Assembly: GCA_022705905.1 (NCBI GenBank)
Contig: JAKJDO010000002.1
Span: forward strand, 8,872 to 72,871
Length of the DNA stretch: 64,000 nucleotides
Direction: 5' to 3'
DNA from: Patescibacteria group bacterium
GTDB lineage: Bacteria > Patescibacteriota > Patescibacteriia > Patescibacteriales > UBA12075
The notes under the pieces were generated by a model. It worked only from the letters and a program-made list of their open reading frames with translations. It did not search any database and was not told the DNA's origin. This document shows, piece after piece, positions 10,519 to 60,006 of this stretch; positions within the stretch are counted from its first letter, which is position 1; every line of letters begins with the position of its first letter. Position numbers and translations under genes: made by a program.

Positions 10519-10675
10519 GTTTCTTTAAATAAGGCAGTTTGGAAATTTAATGTTGGAAGTTAAAGTAATTTAATTTTCAACTGCAATTTCTAAGAGAAGC
10601 TGAACTTTGACAATTTAAGAGAGCATCTAAAAATATAAGAACCAATAATAAGATTATTAAAATCAATAATGTGAG

Positions 10676-13945
<3,270 letters not shown>

Positions 13946-14001
13946 CACATTATTGGTTTTAAAAAAATTCGTTCATAGTTAAAATATAAAAAGCGCCATC
14001 G

Positions 14002-14846: not shown

Positions 14847-15248
14847 AGCTTAAGCCTAATTTATTTATTTTTAGTTAACTAATTTTTAGTATGTGGATGA
14901 ATTAATTTTATTATAACATAATTTTTATTTTTTGGACAGAAAATATATAAAAATATTTTTTATTTTTTAGAAAAAGAAAAAAATGTGGATAACTTATATT
15001 TTTATCAAAAGAATATTGACAAAAATAATATTAAATTTTATTTAATATTAAATAAAATAAGAAAATAATAATATTTTTGTAGAAAAAATATTGACATTAT
15101 TTAATATAGCATTATAATAACAATAAGATCATTCCAACATAGAAAATGCCTAAAAGATGGCTAAAAAAGTCATCTCAAAGCTTTTTAAAAAATAACAAGC
15201 CAACCAAAAACAACGGGGAGTTTTTACAGCTCCCCTCAACTTATTTTT

Positions 15249-27120: not shown

Positions 27121-27121
27121 G

Positions 27122-27194
27122 TGCGCTAGGATGGATTTGAACCATCGACCCCCGCTTTATAAGAGCGGTGCTCTAACCACTGAGCTACTAGCGC
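27122..27194 (-). tRNA. tRNA-Ile (anticodon UAU)
   Basis: Minus strand: gcgctag-ta-gctc-agtggtt-agagc-a-ccgct-CTTATAA-agcgg-gggtc-gatgg-ttcaaat-ccatc-ctagcgc-a. Confidence 0.85.
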
Positions 27195-55130: not shown

Positions 55131-55742
55131 ATGGAACATCCAAGCAAGGAAAGAACCTTAGTAATTATTAAGCCAGACGGAGTTCAGCGTTCGTTGATTG
55201 GCGAAATTGTCCGTAGATACGAGCGCACCGGTTTAAAATTAACCGGTTTAAAAATGGTAATTCCAACCGAAGAATTAGCAACTAAGCATTACTATGAAGT
55301 AGGCGGCGATGCCTGGATAGAAGAAGTTGGCCGTAAAGCCCGAGCTTCTTACGAAAAAAAAGGTTTAACTTCGCCTTATAAAACTAACTCCGAAAATGGT
55401 TGGGCGGTCTTAAAATCTAACGCTAAATATTTAAGCTCCGGTCCGGTAGTTTGTATGATTTGGCAAGGCAACCAGGCAGTGGCCTTAGTTAGGAAAATAA
55501 CCGGCGGCACCGAACCGTTAACATCAGATGTCGGCAGCATCCGTGGTGATTTTACTTTAGATTCATATTCAATTGCCGACACCGATCAACGTAGTGTCCG
55601 CAATTTAATCCATGCTTCCGGCGCTACCGATGAGGCTGAAAAAGAAATAGCGATTTGGTTTAAAAAGGATGAAATTTCTCAGTATAGGCTAATTGCCGAA
55701 AGTATCCTTTATGACGTTAACTTAGACGGAATAAAAGAGTAA
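55131..55742 (+). CDS. ndk: Nucleoside diphosphate kinase (long form with internal insertion)
   Basis: ERTLVIIKPDGVQR, NLIHASG. About 50 aa longer than typical Ndk. Confidence 0.85.
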   Translation: MEHPSKERTLVIIKPDGVQRSLIGEIVRRYERTGLKLTGLKMVIPTEELATKHYYEVGGDAWIEEVGRKARASYEKKGLTSPYKTNSENGWAVLKSNAKYLSSGPVVCMIWQGNQAVALVRKITGGTEPLTSDVGSIRGDFTLDSYSIADTDQRSVRNLIHASGATDEAEKEIAIWFKKDEISQYRLIAESILYDVNLDGIKE

Positions 55743-55797
55743 TACTTGGCGCGTCGTTATGGAAAAACGGACTTTTGACTTTTAAGTTCGTTTTTTA

Positions 55798-55990
55798 TTG
55801 ACAAAGCCCTTACTTTGGTATAAGATATTGTTATATGGAAAAAGCCATACTCAAAATTCAGAATGTATTTACCATTATTTTAGTCGTATTGGTCGGCATT
55901 ATTATGCCGGAATTTGAGATGGTCAAGAAAGTATAAGGTAAAAAAATAACATAGATTATAAAGGGCCATCTCAACCGAGACGGCCCTTTT
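55798..55990 (+). promoter_or_regulatory. Module U1: promoter, tiny ORF 55835..55936 (MEKAILKIQNVFTIILVVLVGIIMPEFEMVKKV), alternative hairpins, terminator
   Basis: TTGACA at 55798. ctcaaaattc (55850-59) pairs with gaatttgag (55910-18). gagatggtc (55916-24) pairs with gggccatctc (55963-72), which otherwise pairs with gagacggccc (55977-86) followed by T4. Confidence 0.5.
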
Positions 55991-56006
55991 AGTTTGTTCT
56001 TTGACA

Positions 56007-56296
56007 GTCCTTGCTAAACTCTAGCTTTAGAGGAATGGGGAGAAACATAGAATTTTTTTAAACAGCTTAGGGGGTGTAAATCTTATGGATACGGGCATTA
56101 ACGGAACAAACAGAAAAACGAATATAATCAAGAGCAATATCCAGTCCTTAAACGGCAGGCTGGAAATTGCCATAACAAGGGGTGACGAACATGATGCGAG
56201 ACTTTACCGATTTCAGCTGAAACAGGCCTGGACAGGACTGAGCCGTTTGGAACCGGCAGAGTTTCCTGAGACTTAAAACAGAGAGTTAGCAAGGAC
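56007..56296 (+). repeat. 16-17 nt inverted repeat bracketing ORF 56085..56276
   Basis: gtccttgctaaactct (56007-56022) versus agagagttagcaaggac (56280-56296), starting 4 nt after the stop codon. Small terminator at 56298-56319. Confidence 0.6.
56085..56276 (+). CDS. Island ORF A, 63 aa, unknown
   Basis: Track ORF; a purine-rich gggggtg precedes the ATG. Confidence 0.45.
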   Translation: MDTGINGTNRKTNIIKSNIQSLNGRLEIAITRGDEHDARLYRFQLKQAWTGLSRLEPAEFPET

Positions 56297-56395
56297 GAGT
56301 GGCGTTAGTCACTATTTTTCGGAGACTAGGATACCGTCCTACTCCATTCGGGGGTCTTACCCAGATCCCCTTATTTTCCTAAAAATAATTTATAT

Positions 56396-56527
56396 ATGAA
56401 AAATTTTCAGAAAAATTTAAACATTATTATTATCGTTATTATTATTTTAAATAATGTTGTTTAAGTTTTTTTGAAGACAAAAAGAAAATAAAAGAGGGCG
56501 GTCTTTAAAAGAATGTCCGCTTTTTAG
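56396..56527 (+). promoter_or_regulatory. Module U1b: tiny ORF 56396..56464 (MKNFQKNLNIIIIVIIILNNVV) plus AU-rich hairpin and weak terminator
   Basis: Seven Ile codons in a run of eight. aatttaaacatt (56414-25) pairs imperfectly with aatgttgtttaagtt (56453-67). gggcgg/ccgc stem followed by T5 at 56496-56525. Confidence 0.35.
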
Positions 56528-56570
56528 ACAAAACAAAAACGCTCTTATTAAATTTTTTAAGGAGGATAAT

Positions 56571-56846
56571 ATGACAGACGAGACTTCATGCGGAATTTTT
56601 TCAGGCGTATTTCTCAATGAAGATGCAGTGAGAAGTTCTTTACAGGAGCAACACGCTATCGTCGGCGTTATTTTGTTAGACGGAAGAGTTGCTACCTATT
56701 TAGATTCCCAGTCTGATCACGGTGGATGTGTCAGAAATAGGTTGAATAACAGGATGTCAATTGTTAGAACCATTTGTGACTGTAAGCGAATTTCCCATGC
56801 GGGGATAAAGATTATCAGCACCAACGATGATTTGGCGGCAAAATAA
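56571..56846 (+). CDS. Island ORF B, 91 aa, unknown
   Basis: SD AAGGAGG 6 nt upstream. Confidence 0.5.
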   Translation: MTDETSCGIFSGVFLNEDAVRSSLQEQHAIVGVILLDGRVATYLDSQSDHGGCVRNRLNNRMSIVRTICDCKRISHAGIKIISTNDDLAAK

Positions 56847-56874
56847 CCCAGACTTGAAAAAAAAGGAGAAGACC

Positions 56875-56931
56875 ATGAACCTGAAAGAATATTTTATCGA
56901 CAATGACGACAAAGACCAAAGAGTATTTTAA
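56875..56931 (+). CDS. Possible 18-aa acidic peptide (MNLKEYFIDNDDKDQRVF)
   Basis: SD AAAGGAG 6 nt upstream; hand-translated. Confidence 0.3.
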   Translation: MNLKEYFIDNDDKDQRVF

Positions 56932-56958
56932 GATATACTCTTGGAGAAGAGTGGAAAA

Positions 56959-57222
56959 ATGCCAGTTGGTTACTGTGCAGTGTACGGTTTTGACAATGGT
57001 GCGGCGTACATTATAGATGAACCCAGCGAGACAAAGAAGTCTTTCTCATATTTTGAGAGCTTAACTAAGCGAGAAGCTTCTTTAGGAAAAGACTCCGGTA
57101 TAGTTATCAGGTCGAATGGCGTGCCATTTTTAACTGTTGGCGAACCATTTGAGAAATGGCTCAGGGCTTATAAAATGCCTGGGCATGACGTATTTGTCCT
57201 GGAGGGGAAAGACGGAACCTAG
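56959..57222 (+). CDS. Island ORF C, 87 aa, unknown
   Basis: Track ORF 56941..57222; the ATG at 56959 is preferred. Confidence 0.5.
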   Translation: MPVGYCAVYGFDNGAAYIIDEPSETKKSFSYFESLTKREASLGKDSGIVIRSNGVPFLTVGEPFEKWLRAYKMPGHDVFVLEGKDGT

Positions 57223-57242
57223 ACCGTCAGCGAGTATTGCTT

Positions 57243-57290
57243 GCTCCTCGCCATATACCTTTTCAATTATTGGCGAGGAGCTTGATTTTT
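57243..57290 (+). terminator. Intrinsic terminator after ORF C
   Basis: gctcctcgcca...tggcgaggagc followed by a T-run. Confidence 0.8.
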
Positions 57291-57464
57291 CTTATTAATG
57301 TGTTAATATAAAAACAGTATGATACAAGCTAAGCAACAAGCATTGTTATTAGGTTTATTGTTATTACTACCTTCGCGGGTGGCTTGTTTTCATGTAAAAA
57401 ATAGGTAAATAAGATTTACATAAAAACGCAGAATGGCTGCCCGCATCAAGCGGGTAGTTTTTTT
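57282..57464 (+). promoter_or_regulatory. Module U2: promoter, tiny ORF 57319..57408 (MIQAKQQALLLGLLLLLPSRVACFHVKNR), alternative hairpins, terminator
   Basis: TTGATT-16-TAATAT. atgatacaagc (57319-29) pairs with gcttgttttcat (57382-93). gcgggtggc (57375-83) pairs with gctgcccgc (57436-44), which otherwise pairs with gcgggtag (57450-57) followed by T7. Confidence 0.5.
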
Positions 57465-57492
57465 GTGATCAAAAGGAGGAGGTTCATTCAAG

Positions 57493-57777
57493 ATGAGTAA
57501 ATTACAAGCACAAACATCTGACAAACAATTTTCGTGTATCGGCGGTTGTGGCGACCTCGTGTATAGCAAAGGTGAAAAGTGTGCTTCCTGCCAAAGAGCA
57601 GAAGCGACTGTAACTTTTTTGATCAAACAAGGAGGGGGTGAAATAAGAGACTGGGAAAGTTGCCCAACATATCAAAGGATCGAGCAACCGTGTGAAAATG
57701 AGTGCTCCGGTTGCATGAGGGCCTGGAGTATAAAAGAGACGAGAAGACAAGTCGGCGCAGCAATAGTCAATGCCTAA
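57493..57777 (+). CDS. Island ORF D, 94 aa, Cys-rich (two zinc-ribbon-like clusters)
   Basis: SD GGAGGAGG. CIGGC...CASC and CPTYQRIEQPCENECSGC. Confidence 0.55.
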   Translation: MSKLQAQTSDKQFSCIGGCGDLVYSKGEKCASCQRAEATVTFLIKQGGGEIRDWESCPTYQRIEQPCENECSGCMRAWSIKETRRQVGAAIVNA

Positions 57778-57797
57778 ACGATACAAGGAGGAGCTCT

Positions 57798-57947
57798 ATG
57801 AAAAATTCTATGGAAGATCGTGTTTGCCGTTGCTCCAATCCGCATTACAGAGGCGGAGTATGTATAACTTGCGGCGGGAAGTTTGTCGTCAAGTCAATTC
57901 GGCCGCTTTGTTGCCGAGTACCAATTCCGCCCAAGCCGCCTAGGTGA
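57798..57947 (+). CDS. Island ORF E, 49 aa, zinc-ribbon-like
   Basis: SD AAGGAGG. CRC...CITCGG. Confidence 0.5.
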   Translation: MKNSMEDRVCRCSNPHYRGGVCITCGGKFVVKSIRPLCCRVPIPPKPPR

Positions 57948-57972
57948 CAGTCGGATCAATGCTCTCTTGTTC

Positions 57973-58005
57973 GAGGGGTGGCTTTATGTCCACCCCGCTT
58001 TTTTT
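57973..58005 (+). terminator. Intrinsic terminator after ORF E
   Basis: ggggtgg ctttatgt ccacccc followed by T7. Confidence 0.8.
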
Positions 58006-58034
58006 ATTAAAATTAGGTAAAAAATAGGACATGC

Positions 58035-58237
58035 TTGCATTTTTGTGTAATTTTGGTATAATTATCCACAAGAGTAAAGATATGATTAAAACATCACTAA
58101 GAAACAATTTCTATTTTGGCTTTTATTTTAGTCTCCAGGGGAGATCGTTTCTTAGTGGTGTTTTGACGAAATAGTAAAAAACAAACACCATTAGGGAAAA
58201 CAAAACGAGCCTCCCCGTAAACCGGGGAGGTTTGTTT
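58035..58237 (+). promoter_or_regulatory. Module U3: promoter, tiny ORF 58082..58174 (MIKTSLRNNFYFGFYFSLQGRSFLSGVLTK), 18-bp hairpin, terminator
   Basis: TTGCAT-16-TGgTATAAT. aaaacatcactaagaaac (58088-105) pairs with gtttcttagtggtgtttt (58147-64). ggggag (58138-43) can pair with ctcccc of the terminator cctccccg/cggggagg (58210-30). Confidence 0.5.
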
Positions 58238-58261
58238 ATTAAGAAAAATAGTTTAAATAAC

Positions 58262-58389
58262 ATGAAAAAGATATTACAAACAACGAGCTTCTATTTCTAC
58301 CTTTACTTTTTTAGATAAAGGCTGGTTGTTTGTGATATTTTAAATCACAAAAAGAAAAAGAACCGGCCTTGAAGAAAGTCCGGTTCTTT
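58262..58389 (+). promoter_or_regulatory. Module U4: tiny ORF 58262..58318 (MKKILQTTSFYFYLYFFR), 14-bp hairpin, terminator-like stem
   Basis: atattacaaacaac (58271-84) pairs with gttgtttgtgatat (58325-38). ctggttgtt (58322-30) can pair with aagaaccgg (58358-66), which otherwise pairs with ccggttctt (58380-88). Confidence 0.45.
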
Positions 58390-58448
58390 AATTATATAGA
58401 TCTTTAGCAATTATCTTAACTATCCTACATCAGGGAGGAAGACGACAG

Positions 58449-58667
58449 ATGGGAAAAGAGCTTATTTGGGTTGGAGAAAAGTGTCATCAGCTAGTAACAA
58501 TCGCTAGTAACGACAAGCACGAGGGGGTGTGTCCAGAGTGCGGTAACGTAGAGTACGCGATACGCGGGTTTTTACATTCCGATGGCACTATTGAAGAGGC
58601 AACTATCGACAGCGTCAGTCGGTGGTTAAGGGAAAAGGTGCAAGAAGCAGCAGCAAAAGCTGCTTAA
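58449..58667 (+). CDS. Island ORF F, 72 aa, zinc-ribbon-like (CH...CPEC)
   Basis: SD GGGAGG; track ORF. Confidence 0.55.
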   Translation: MGKELIWVGEKCHQLVTIASNDKHEGVCPECGNVEYAIRGFLHSDGTIEEATIDSVSRWLREKVQEAAAKAA

Positions 58668-58686
58668 TACGAGGAGGTTTGAAACC

Positions 58687-59037
58687 ATGAAAGAAACACA
58701 GACACAGACGATAATTTCAGGCGCGATGTTTTTCCGGCTCGGCGGTTACTTTGAGGACGACACCCATCTTCAGTGGCTCAGAAAAGCCCTTGAGGAAAGG
58801 GGTGTTATGCTGATCGATACAGAGCCGTTGCCTTTGAAGCCGCATCTCAATCAGAAGCCGACAGGAACCCAGGTCTCAATCGAGGCCGGCATACTCGAAC
58901 CGCTTGAAGTGACGGAACTGATGTGTCCGGCATTGAGAGCAAGAGTCCTCGGCTTCTCTTGGACGGCTGAGCCCGACCCTGAGCATTCGGAAAGGATCGA
59001 TTCTGTCGGCACCAAGTCGCAGGAAGCTGCGAGGTGA
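58687..59037 (+). CDS. Island ORF G, 116 aa, unknown
   Basis: SD GAGGAGG; about 52% GC in the sampled row 58801-58860. Confidence 0.55.
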   Translation: MKETQTQTIISGAMFFRLGGYFEDDTHLQWLRKALEERGVMLIDTEPLPLKPHLNQKPTGTQVSIEAGILEPLEVTELMCPALRARVLGFSWTAEPDPEHSERIDSVGTKSQEAAR

Positions 59038-59041
59038 CGAC

Positions 59042-59209
59042 ATGGACGAACAGGCAGTAGGAGAATACAACTTCTTCACTTATGATTCAGGCGACAAGGG
59101 CGACCACCAGCCGGCAGAAGGGGAGACATCCAGTTCTTCTCCATCATCAACAACAGCGCCTTCAGAACAGAAGCGCATCAAGTACCTCTTCTCAGATGTG
59201 GGGAGGTAG
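59042..59209 (+). CDS. Island ORF H, 55 aa, acidic/Ser-rich
   Basis: ATG 4 nt after the ORF G stop codon; hand-translated MDEQAVGEYNFFTYDSGDKGDHQPAEGETSSSSPSSTTAPSEQKRIKYLFSDVGR. Confidence 0.4.
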   Translation: MDEQAVGEYNFFTYDSGDKGDHQPAEGETSSSSPSSTTAPSEQKRIKYLFSDVGR

Positions 59210-59249
59210 CAAAGCCCGATAGCAAACGGGGAAGGAGGTAGTCAGATTA

Positions 59250-59290
59250 GGTCCGGGGAACGTAAGTACCTGGACCTTCTTTTTATTTTT
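59250..59290 (+). terminator. Intrinsic terminator closing the F-G-H unit
   Basis: ggtccgg...cctggacc followed by a T-rich tract. Confidence 0.7.
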
Positions 59291-59359
59291 AAAACTTGAC
59301 AATTTTTAAAACTTATGCTATACTTTTTAAACAAAAAATGCCCTTTGAAAGGAAAAACA

Positions 59360-59713
59360 ATGGACAAAAAGCATATATTGGTTCTTGATGACGAGCCAGA
59401 ACTTACAAATTTTTTGTCAGATTGCCTTGACAGCTATGAAGTCAAGCAGTGCACCAAAACCGACGAAGCTATCGACGAGTTAAAAAACAGCCCAGAGAAA
59501 TATTTTGGCTGCATAATTGACAACGATATCGATGAAGTTGGTGGTGGCGTAAGGTTTGCCAAAACGATAAAGAGCCTAAAGATCGTAACCACGATCGTTA
59601 TGTTCACGGGCAAACCTTTGCAAAAAGAGGAAGAAGCGGTAATCAGGAATACGGTTGATCGGTTAGAAAAGAAGCCGGTCTCTGTCAAAACAATCAGAAC
59701 AATATTCCCTTAG
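59360..59713 (+). CDS. Divergent stand-alone receiver (REC) domain protein
   Basis: ILVLDDEPE, IIDNDI, MFTG, EKKP pattern. Promoter TTGACA-17-TATACT at 59296-59324. Confidence 0.6.
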   Translation: MDKKHILVLDDEPELTNFLSDCLDSYEVKQCTKTDEAIDELKNSPEKYFGCIIDNDIDEVGGGVRFAKTIKSLKIVTTIVMFTGKPLQKEEEAVIRNTVDRLEKKPVSVKTIRTIFP

Positions 59714-59724
59714 AGGAGGAAGAT

Positions 59725-60006
59725 ATGGACGTGATAGTTTTCTGGATTATTATTTTTTTTGTCAGTGTACTTTCTGGTATTTTATTTTGGGGTATGAGCA
59801 ACAACAAAGGACAGTCAATCGCGATGTTCATCTTGAGTGTTGCACTCATGTTTCTCGGGTTATTCTGGTTCCTTCCTGCCCTTAATCTTCAGAGGGAGCC
59901 GGGAGCAATCATTGTGGTCGGCTTCATTGTTCTTTGTATTTCATTTGTGTCGGGAGGCCTTCAGTCTTTCGTTGATTGCAATAACAGGAGAGTAAATAAA
60001 GCCTGA
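59725..60006 (+). CDS. Small 3-TM membrane protein
   Basis: Track ORF; the start is coupled to the upstream stop codon via GAGGAGG. Confidence 0.5.
   Translation: MDVIVFWIIIFFVSVLSGILFWGMSNNKGQSIAMFILSVALMFLGLFWFLPALNLQREPGAIIVVGFIVLCISFVSGGLQSFVDCNNRRVNKA

Follow-up and report, generated by a model that had tools for sequence, protein, structure and literature searches.

Tandem leader-peptide elements with phenylalanine and tyrosine codon runs, probable transcription attenuators, upstream of small orphan genes in a Patescibacteria genome

The present analysis concerns a window of 64 kb of Patescibacteria DNA (by window we mean the whole stretch that was analysed, 64,000 nucleotides (nt) in length) and, within it, a pair of short tandem units, U3 and U4. 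The window is a segment of chromosome with a GC content of ~37%, carrying a 23S-5S rRNA pair and tRNAs. U3 and U4 lie in a stretch of 3.5 kb bounded by ndk (55131-55742) and a response-regulator gene (from ~59315), in which all genes are very small and without Pfam domains. Each unit comprises a short open reading frame (ORF) with a run of codons for phenylalanine and tyrosine, a long hairpin and a terminator, and the pair is followed by three small ORFs, here termed F, G and H (Table 1). We propose that the two units act as attenuators of transcription in series.

The U3/U4 locus is also present in the metagenome-assembled genomes (MAGs) GCA_002069505.1, GCA_020047475.1 and GCA_035388145.1 and in digester and sewage metagenomes. 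Exact-protein look-ups lead to the same species only, and the 17 close-relative loci are 99.4-100% identical, for which reason they give no information on covariation. Only three positions differ between strain groups across 491 nt (58033, 58254 and 58301); at the last of these, a C>T change in sister strains turns Leu14 of U4 into Phe (FYFYLYFF to FYFYFYFF), by which the sole Leu of the run is lost. A scan with the neighbouring NDK protein puts the organism among the Patescibacteria, with a Candidatus Moraniibacteriota MAG as the closest named relative.

Transcription of both units is predicted to start at one sigma-70-type promoter. A consensus promoter scan of the window does not list this site, yet ~40 homologues keep a promoter upstream of the unit (CTTGAT/CTTGCA-N17-TATAAT). 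From 58063 to 58448 the scan lists nothing promoter-like on the + strand, and U4 is without a promoter of its own. As judged from the sequence, the site upstream of U3 is the sole promoter for U3, U4 and F-G-H; because U4 has none, F-G-H would need read-through of both putative attenuators. Promoter, ORFs, long stems and terminators had been placed by a first-pass annotation of the window, and all were found in the same positions, in folds far beyond shuffled controls.

Following the usual nomenclature, the long hairpin is formed by regions 1 and 2, and the terminator by regions 3 and 4. The U3 stem (58088-58105 / 58147-58164, one G-U pair) lengthens to 58086-58112 / 58140-58166 in the minimum free energy (MFE) fold, which has a z-score of -7.6 against dinucleotide shuffles, and the U3 ORF extends across region 2. 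The U4 stem (58271-58284 / 58325-58338, one G-U pair) becomes 58268-58284 / 58325-58341 in the MFE fold; read on the minus strand, the terminator of this unit is followed by a better U-tract. The U4 stop codon (58316-58318) abuts region 2, and the 3' arm of the stem lies outside the ORF and can pair with the 5' half of the terminator, as the first-pass annotation had pointed out. Folded jointly, U3 and U4 reach a z-score of -10.7 against dinucleotide shuffles and an energy of -110.3 kcal/mol on the + strand, versus -87.5 kcal/mol on the minus strand. Only the + strand can form the G-U pairs, since T:G becomes an A·C mismatch on the other; the RNA is therefore the + strand. The loop motif has two matches in the 64 kb, U3 and U4, where 0.08 are expected. 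The earlier statement that the stem arms of the two units share no sequence and are completely different does not hold. Aligned in register, the arms are identical at ~11-13 of 17-18 positions each (~65%) and differ by four compensatory double changes and by G-U transitions; on this alignment the two stems are homologous, not unrelated.

Table 1. Features of the U3/U4 locus and of neighbouring units, in positions of the window.
Feature	Position	Strand	Remarks
Promoter, predicted, sigma-70-type	58035-58062	+	-35 TTGCAT 58035-58040, 16-nt spacer, extended -10 TGgTATAAT 58054-58062
9-mer TTATCCACA	58062-58070	+	straight after -10 hexamer
U3 leader ORF	58082-58174	+	30 codons, MIKTSLRNNFYFGFYFSLQGRSFLSGVLTK; stop 58172-58174
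U3 regulatory run F10-Y-F-G-F-Y-F16	58109-58129	+	proposed ribosome stalling site
U3 region 1	58086-58112	+	5' arm of 1:2 hairpin, codons 2-11; MFE fold, covariation
U3 region 2	58138-58166	+	GGGGAG + CGTT + 3' arm; pairs with region 1 or region 3 (predicted antiterminator)
U3 region 3	58183-58217	+	conserved box CAYTAGGGAAAAC + terminator 5' half 58203-58217
U3 region 4	58223-58240	+	terminator 3' half 58223-58237 into U-tract TTTGTTTATT
U4 leader ORF	58262-58318	+	18 codons, MKKILQTTSFYFYLYFFR; aromatic run 58289-58312
U4 region 1	58268-58296	+	5' arm of 1:2 hairpin; MFE fold, z = -6.7
U4 region 2	58319-58341	+	AAGGCTGGTTGTTTGTGATATTT; mimics terminator 3' half AAGTCCGGTTCTTT
U4 regions 3 + 4	58343-58396	+	ATCACAAA; terminator 58357-58370 / 58376-58389; tail TTCTTTAATTAT
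ORF F	58449-58667	+	72 amino acids, zinc-ribbon-like; GGAGG-type Shine-Dalgarno
ORF G	58687-59037	+	116 amino acids, orphan; GGAGG-type Shine-Dalgarno
ORF H	59042-59209	+	55 amino acids, ends ...YLFSDVGR; GGAGG-type Shine-Dalgarno
Hairpin, probable operon end	59249-59290	+	GGUCCGGGG...CCUGGACC then UUCUUUUUAUUUUU; fold z -1.8; next promoter from 59296
Promoter of response-regulator gene, strong	59296-59324		TTGACA-17-TATACT
Leu-run unit	ORF 57319-57408		MIQAKQQALLLGLLLLLPSRVACFHVKNR (MIQAKQQALLLGLLLLLPSRV...); terminator 57435-57459
Ile-run unit	56396-56464		MKNFQKNLNIIIIVIIILNNVV (...NIIIIVIIIL...); within inverted repeat 56406-56431/56450-56475
Ile/Leu/Val-run unit	55835-55936		MEKAILKIQNVFTIILVVLVGIIMPEFEMVKKV (...TIILVVLVGII...); terminator 55960-55989

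Blastn of the small-gene island against 31 NDK-anchored loci displays U3 homologues of 70-76% identity in L019, L021, L022 and L023 (L with a number denotes a locus). A covariance model built from U3, U4 and these four, followed by a metagenome pattern scan, brought the family to 51 matches, 46 of them distinct, at 61-181 bits; altogether ~45 related loci exist. Matches of 86-181 bits were obtained in 4 Patescibacteria MAG loci and in 42 of the 45 metagenome loci, and the other three (L055, L074 and L080) were rejected as chance pattern matches within coding or unrelated sequence. U3-type members share one order of elements: promoter, the 9-mer TTATCCACA, ATG, an ORF of 27-33 codons, a hairpin with both arms inside the ORF, the box CAYTAGGGAAAAC, a GC-rich terminator and a U-tract.

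The reading frame is conserved in these relatives. In ~42 of the 46 distinct homologues the ORF runs from the same ATG column to a stop after ...GVLT(D/N/K/S), giving 27-33 amino acids, and the remainder either lie on contigs truncated at the 5' end or start one codon off. The inter-arm lengths fall into five classes (23, 26, 29, 32 and 38 nt), all of them 2 modulo 3, and differences in the loop are often synonymous (TTT/TTC, TAT/TAC, AAT/AAC, AGT/AGC). An aromatic run, in which Phe predominates, starts at codon 9-10 and occupies codons 9-17; of 8 codons, 5-8 are aromatic. Averaged over the family, the richest stretch of 8 codons contains 6.5 such residues (F 4.3, Y 1.9, W 0.3), the background in the proteins of the genome being 4.4% for F and 4.3% for Y. 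Presuming that the ORF is translated, the family thereby has what marks the attenuator class, a leader ORF with a codon run for the sensed amino acid.

The aromatic run is the only peptide feature retained in divergent paralogues, namely the U4 type, the second units of L091, L088 and L075, and L031 and L032. The latter two are distant NDK-linked loci in which the aromatic mini-ORF is kept (...NYWFYFYF... and ...NYFAFWFF...) and the RNA differs. A U4-type second unit stands right behind the first in the close relatives L076, L056 and L052, with ORFs such as MNKILRTTSFYFYFYFFR and MNKILKTTSFFFIYFYFFR; these comprise 18-19 codons in L076 and L056 and 32 codons in L052, and their aromatic run is followed at once by the stop. 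In the clade of L091, L088 and L075, the second unit is aromatic as well but of another kind. Arm-encoded residues vary between clades through compensatory base changes (TSLRNN...SFLSG versus TIQKTV...AVFCG), which argues that selection in the arms acts on pairing and not on the peptide.

Covariation is strong in both helices. In an alignment that was fitted to the model and thus leans to structure (the slid controls use it too), 94.5% of cells in helices 1:2 and 3:4 are standard pairs, versus 42-58% with slid partners, and 23 of the 35 pairs display changes on both sides, versus a mean of 13.1 in 500 shuffles, none of which reaches the observed values; such changes are seen at 13 of 24 pairs of the 1:2 hairpin (94% of cells paired, versus 42-58% slid) and at 8 of 9 pairs of the 3:4 terminator. 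A GC-rich stem with U-tract is found in essentially every member, both units of the window included; the second-unit copy of L076 is degenerate.

In addition, the 5' part of region 2 is similar to the 3' half of the terminator in every lineage, and the two co-vary, as would be expected of an antiterminator (2:3). The 5' part of region 2 and the 5' half of the terminator read GGGGAG...CGTT / AACG...CTCCCC in U3 and AAGGCTGG / CCGGCCTT in U4, GAGGAG / CTCCTC in the L021 type, GGAGAGCGG / CCGGCTCTCC in the L023 type, GCGGAAGAGCAG / CTGGCTTCCGCC in the L054 clade, AAAGGTCG / CGACCTTT in L084 and GGAGATCGTT / AACGATCTCC in L052 and L056. RNAduplex energies for 2:3 range from about -14 to -32 kcal/mol among the U3-type units and the U4 of the window (U3 -23.4, U4 -21.6). 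Pairing of region 2 with its cognate terminator top averages -11.7 kcal/mol, versus -8.25 kcal/mol for non-cognate tops (23 distinct tops; none of 20,000 permutations as good, p ~5e-5, in a comparison that ignores shared ancestry). When the transcript is cut before region 4 and a ribosome mask is placed on codons 10-13, region 2 takes up ~72% of the bases of the terminator 5' half. For U3 of the window these are 10 of 15 bases and for U4 11 of 13; in the free RNA of either unit there are none.

Genes downstream of the family are always on the same strand and often start 7-60 nt past the U-tract, too close for a promoter of their own to fit in, for example in L052 (GGTCTTTATTATAAGGAGGACGCAGTCATG). 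In five lineages, the first of these genes belongs to the synthesis of aromatic amino acids. A prephenate dehydratase with ACT domain follows the leader at +48 nt in L051 (Pfam E 2e-40) and at +107 nt in L068 (E 1e-34). DAHP synthase (PF00793) follows at +52 nt in L084 (class I, E 7e-88) and, with a ferredoxin-like FXD domain, at +63 nt in L058/L053 (E 6e-66) and at +112 nt in L077 (E 5e-70). That these enzymes stand directly behind 5 of ~33 independent leaders by chance is very unlikely. Their position ties the element to the supply of phenylalanine and aromatic amino acids.

Other genes recur in this place as well. A cargo family of ~60 amino acids is found at 7 loci, including behind the DAHP synthase of L077. 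Relatives of H (~50-55 amino acids, with DMLYNMS and the end ...(R/K)xxYFSDVGR) stand downstream of the leader in L023, L060, L072, L081 and L069, and zinc-ribbon proteins like F as well as a family of ~85 amino acids also recur there. None of the recurrent mini-protein cargo families has a Pfam match. Occasional cargo comprises ATP-grasp, GNAT-like and pilin-like proteins. In the window, the presumed regulated genes are F, G and H. A Pfam search of the window's small proteins including these three displays no significant family, and a search of 5.8 billion proteins found relatives of ORF G in its own species only. The hairpin behind H is the probable end of the operon, a weak call because of its fold z-score (Table 1).

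These data suggest that U3 and U4 are ribosome-mediated leader-peptide attenuators in series, sensing charged tRNA-Phe and to a lesser degree tRNA-Tyr; we put the probability of this reading at roughly 0.78. The first-pass annotation had suggested duplicated attenuators sensing aromatic amino acids, and the homologues with their kept frames, the covariation, the co-varying pairing of the predicted antiterminator and the biosynthetic enzymes downstream all lend support to it. The transcript would start at the single promoter, and the leader ORF would be translated while RNA polymerase is still transcribing. With plentiful Phe-tRNA, the ribosome would pass the F/Y codons. In U3 it would then continue over region 2, and in U4 it would park at the stop codon, where it would mask region 2 since the stop abuts it. 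With region 2 masked, regions 3 and 4 would form the terminator and transcription would stop at the U-tract. Without any ribosome, the long 1:2 hairpin would form, and 3:4 would again give the terminator. If Phe-tRNA is scarce, the ribosome would stall at codons 10-16 in the hairpin loop, hold region 1 apart and free region 2. The latter could then pair with the emerging region 3, the terminator would come too late, and the polymerase would read through. Two such attenuators in series would lower the basal level of F-G-H and make the response steeper.

Several observations weigh against this model. Ribosome-masked equilibrium folds of the full-length RNA keep the terminator in most members, U3 and U4 included. 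Any switch would consequently have to be kinetic, as is generally accepted for classical attenuators. When regions 2-3 are aligned with MAFFT and passed to RNAalifold, no more than 8 pairs emerge, as the terminator tops are in a different pairing register from clade to clade; the alignment-free duplex comparison of cognate and non-cognate tops was used in its place, with the reservation on ancestry given above. The F/Y codons are in the hairpin loop and not within region 1. No GGAGG Shine-Dalgarno sequence precedes the ORF of U3 or U4, in a neighbourhood where all genes have strong ones; translation would therefore need a near-leaderless or A/U-rich initiation. Conservation is good at both ends of the peptide (MIKT.QKT and VFCGVLT), which could reflect a function of the peptide, though the paired arms encode both. 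Finally, F, G and H are small orphans and not genes of an aromatic pathway, a point on which the earlier interpretation has to be corrected.

The 3.5-kb stretch holds three further units with the layout of U3, i.e. promoter, short ORF, hairpin and terminator, and with runs of other codons (Table 1). The terminator of the Leu-run unit directly precedes the Shine-Dalgarno sequence of a Cys-rich ORF of 94 amino acids (57493-57777), and its homologues in L020 and L022 keep LLLGLLLLL with a covarying terminator. By eye, CGCGGGTGGCT (57372-57382) resembles the terminator 3' half GCGGGTAGTT. This unit (57319-57470) is probably a leucine attenuator. The Ile unit (56396-56530) and the Ile/Leu/Val unit (55798-55989) are each upstream of small orphan ORFs, and the U3/U4 covariance model matches 56399-56530 weakly (22.5 bits). 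In relatives, the Phe-type model finds units with Ile (MKLLQRIARIIISIIIINDDFCCPLKT) or Ile/Leu/Val runs (MKSIKLQNTYLLSAIILVVVVVGLLEISLL) at L087:2169-2310 (minus strand; Ile, ...RIIISIIIIN...), L022:11336-11482 (Ile/Leu/Val, ...IILVVVVVGLL...) and L021:6355-6500, all at 33-40 bits. This suggests one RNA scaffold diversified by exchange of the regulatory codon run, that is, a set of paralogous attenuators. For the hydrophobic units 55835-55936 and L022:11335, a type I toxin or small membrane protein had been considered; it was dropped, as Ile/Leu/Val, Ile and Leu runs occur on the same scaffold of hairpin plus terminator.

The anatomy could be as described and the signal something other than the charging of Phe- or Tyr-tRNA, for instance an arrest peptide, general translation capacity or a compound that targets the ribosome, the last as in leader attenuators induced by drugs. 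The window's targets, which are not biosynthetic, would fit this, as would the varied cargo elsewhere (ATP-grasp, GNAT-like, pilin-like and many tiny proteins) and the rather good conservation of positions outside the aromatic run; leader ORFs that control non-biosynthetic genes are known from mgtCBR (PMC3641672), bmrCD and mef/mel. However, conservation concerns a class of residue (F > Y > W, at alternating positions) and no exact arrest sequence, the sister units bear Leu, Ile or Val runs on the U3/U4 scaffold, which fits codon-specific sensing, and prephenate dehydratase or DAHP synthase is directly downstream in five lineages. We consider another signal unlikely. There is a slim probability that the units are instead genes for small aromatic-rich peptides (membrane-active or beta-hairpin micropeptides) with terminators of their own, the hairpin stabilising the mRNA or throttling translation and the downstream genes being independent. 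The in-frame indels of the ORF, the conserved N- and C-terminal residues and the strong terminator agree with this, and leader peptides with functions in trans are on record (peTrpL, PMC7298713). Such a family, which the first-pass annotation had named as an alternative, fits poorly, as it leaves the co-varying 2:3 pairing without a role and the downstream genes without room for promoters. Nor does it explain the link to prephenate dehydratase and DAHP synthase; the residues of the arms shift with the compensatory changes, pairing being kept and not the peptide, and U4-type peptides have just 18-19 amino acids and end right behind the aromatic run.

Non-coding small RNAs (sRNAs), i.e. a long hairpin with U-rich loop and terminator that acts by base pairing or protein binding, with incidental ORFs, had been the other alternative of the first-pass annotation. 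Very stable folds, the lack of a Shine-Dalgarno sequence and the sRNA-like look of terminated transcripts of ~170 and ~135 nt speak for them, and sRNAs derived from attenuators are known (rnTrpL, PMC7968998). The conserved start, frame and stop, with loop indels all multiples of 3 and loop substitutions often synonymous, contradict this, and distant relatives retain the aromatic codons and not the sequence or structure of the RNA. This makes an sRNA family highly improbable. A type I toxin-antitoxin system, in which a structured mRNA for a toxic peptide would be opposed by an antisense RNA from the minus strand, is hardly credible. The peptides are small indeed, the initiation region is buried beside the long hairpin, the U3 terminator is scored on the minus strand too, and a promoter-like site on that strand (58419-58391, TTAAGA-17-TATAAT, 10 of 12 positions matched) is directed into the U4 terminator. 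Yet this site is not conserved in L052, L056 and L076, and L052 has no room for it. The minus strand folds more weakly owing to the G-U pairs, the peptides have only an aromatic core of 7-9 residues and no hydrophobic stretch of transmembrane length, and the gene contexts favour a cis-regulatory leader.

Among known systems, the attenuators proposed here resemble the pheL-pheA leader of E. coli and other gamma-proteobacteria (RF01859) in their Phe-codon leader ORF, 1:2 hairpin, Rho-independent 3:4 terminator and predicted antiterminator, and the model for pheL/pheA likewise rests on pausing at a 1:2 hairpin, attenuation at 3:4 and an alternative antiterminator (PMC3082878). The prephenate dehydratase that would be controlled in L051 and L068 has the same enzyme activity as PheA. 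Unlike in pheL, the ORF of the family has 27-33 codons versus ~15, Phe alternates with Tyr, Ser or Gly without FFF runs, and the regulatory codons are in the hairpin loop. The U3-type ORF crosses region 2, a Shine-Dalgarno sequence is lacking, the host belongs to the Patescibacteria and the targets in the window are orphan mini-proteins. The element resembles pheL neither in sequence nor by covariance model: under the Phe_leader model RF01859, 58132-58240 scores 19.9 bits and 58272-58393 scores 17.2 bits (E = 2-8), versus a gathering threshold of 55 bits. The pheM leader of pheST in E. coli has a mixed Phe/Tyr run and attenuates a Phe-related operon that is not biosynthetic. The family shares the mixed run and not the RNA, which is unrelated, and pheST is downstream of the leader in none of the loci examined.

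Two leader ORFs and attenuators in series, with codon runs that control genes outside the pathway of the sensed amino acid, are known from mgtCBR of Salmonella (PMC3641672). There, the ORFs sense ATP and Pro-tRNA, unlike U3 and U4, which are paralogues that apparently sense the same class of amino acid, each with a full intrinsic terminator. The Leu/phe leader of Lactococcus is Rfam family RF01743, and its model finds no match at E <= 10 in 57200-58500. Classical attenuators upstream of amino-acid genes have been described outside the Proteobacteria, e.g. in Actinobacteria (PMC1262725). Like these and the Lactococcus leader, the present one is a lineage-specific type of leader peptide found by comparative genomics; the RNA families differ. 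In Sinorhizobium, the terminated trpL leader rnTrpL and the peptide peTrpL act in trans (PMC7298713, PMC7968998). Given the conserved ends of the U3 peptide, additional roles in trans are conceivable here too, if hypothetical.

A scan of the whole window at Rfam gathering thresholds displays rRNA and tRNA only, with no family at U3/U4, and an E-value scan of 57200-58500 gives only chance-level matches (mir-186, L20_leader, Phe_leader) of 17-21 bits. Full-text literature searches for attenuators or leader peptides in Patescibacteria or the Candidate Phyla Radiation (CPR) found nothing relevant. Because of the absence of a match in Rfam and of a description in that literature, we assign U3 and U4 to a new family that would use a well-known mechanism, attenuation of the pheL type. 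If the reading is true, no attenuator family would have been described for Patescibacteria/CPR before this one, to judge from the literature searched, and transcription would have to be tightly coupled to translation in these ultrasmall cells. The family would also provide a natural example of paralogous attenuators with swapped codon runs and two copies in series. The sensor, tied to tiny proteins in the window and in many relatives, would give an experimental handle on a set of orphan genes and on how nutrient-dependent symbionts perceive amino acids. The covariance model could serve to annotate hundreds of unannotated intergenic regions of CPR genomes. The mechanism itself is textbook knowledge; the interest lies in the lineage, the arrangement in series, the non-biosynthetic targets and the apparent array for several amino acids.

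Tentatively, the units of the 3.5 kb (Phe/Tyr twice, Leu, Ile and Ile/Leu/Val) may be read as an array of amino-acid sensors that, in this organism with its reduced genome, drives a rapidly evolving set of tiny zinc-ribbon and orphan proteins in place of biosynthetic operons, and in which the charging of tRNAs would be read out into a starvation response or a host interaction. We hold this for possible, though doubtful. Patescibacteria are described as host-dependent, and the cell would presumably obtain its amino acids from outside.

The promoter might additionally be gated by an operator. The 9-mer TTATCCACA, which we take to match the DnaA-box consensus in full, shows no mismatch in 33 of 40 distinct family members and a single one in 4. 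In the window it occurs perfectly only twice, the other copy being at 14984-14992 on the minus strand. In the L054/L068/L067/L085 clade (4 members), a second, inverted copy (TGTGGATAA) is found just upstream of the -35 element, and the two look like an operator pair around the promoter. The 9-mer may be such a putative operator or a conserved 5' end of the transcript; in the latter case, pairing would be conceivable between UCCACA at the RNA 5' end and UGUGGU, which is invariant in region 2. The leader ATG is just 9-11 nt past the -10 hexamer in L059, L082, L072, L054, L068 and L067. These leader ORFs may be leaderless or nearly so, which may also explain the family-wide lack of a Shine-Dalgarno sequence.

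Some further features of the window were noted. The small-gene island from ndk to the Ham1/Macro genes (55750-60000) has a GC content of 0.42-0.44, versus ~0.30-0.40 for most of the window. Within it, a perfect 11-nt inverted repeat (GTCCTTGCTAA at 56007-56017, TTAGCAAGGAC at 56286-56296) flanks an ORF of 63 amino acids (56085-56276), and two copies of the 13-nt direct repeat ATTTTTAAAACTT (59285-59314, spaced by 17 nt) overlap the promoter of the response-regulator gene. The 23S rRNA match (10673-13948) spans 3276 nt versus the 2925 nt of the model, which suggests insertions of ~350 nt. A tRNA-Ile with anticodon UAU is found at 27121-27194 on the minus strand.

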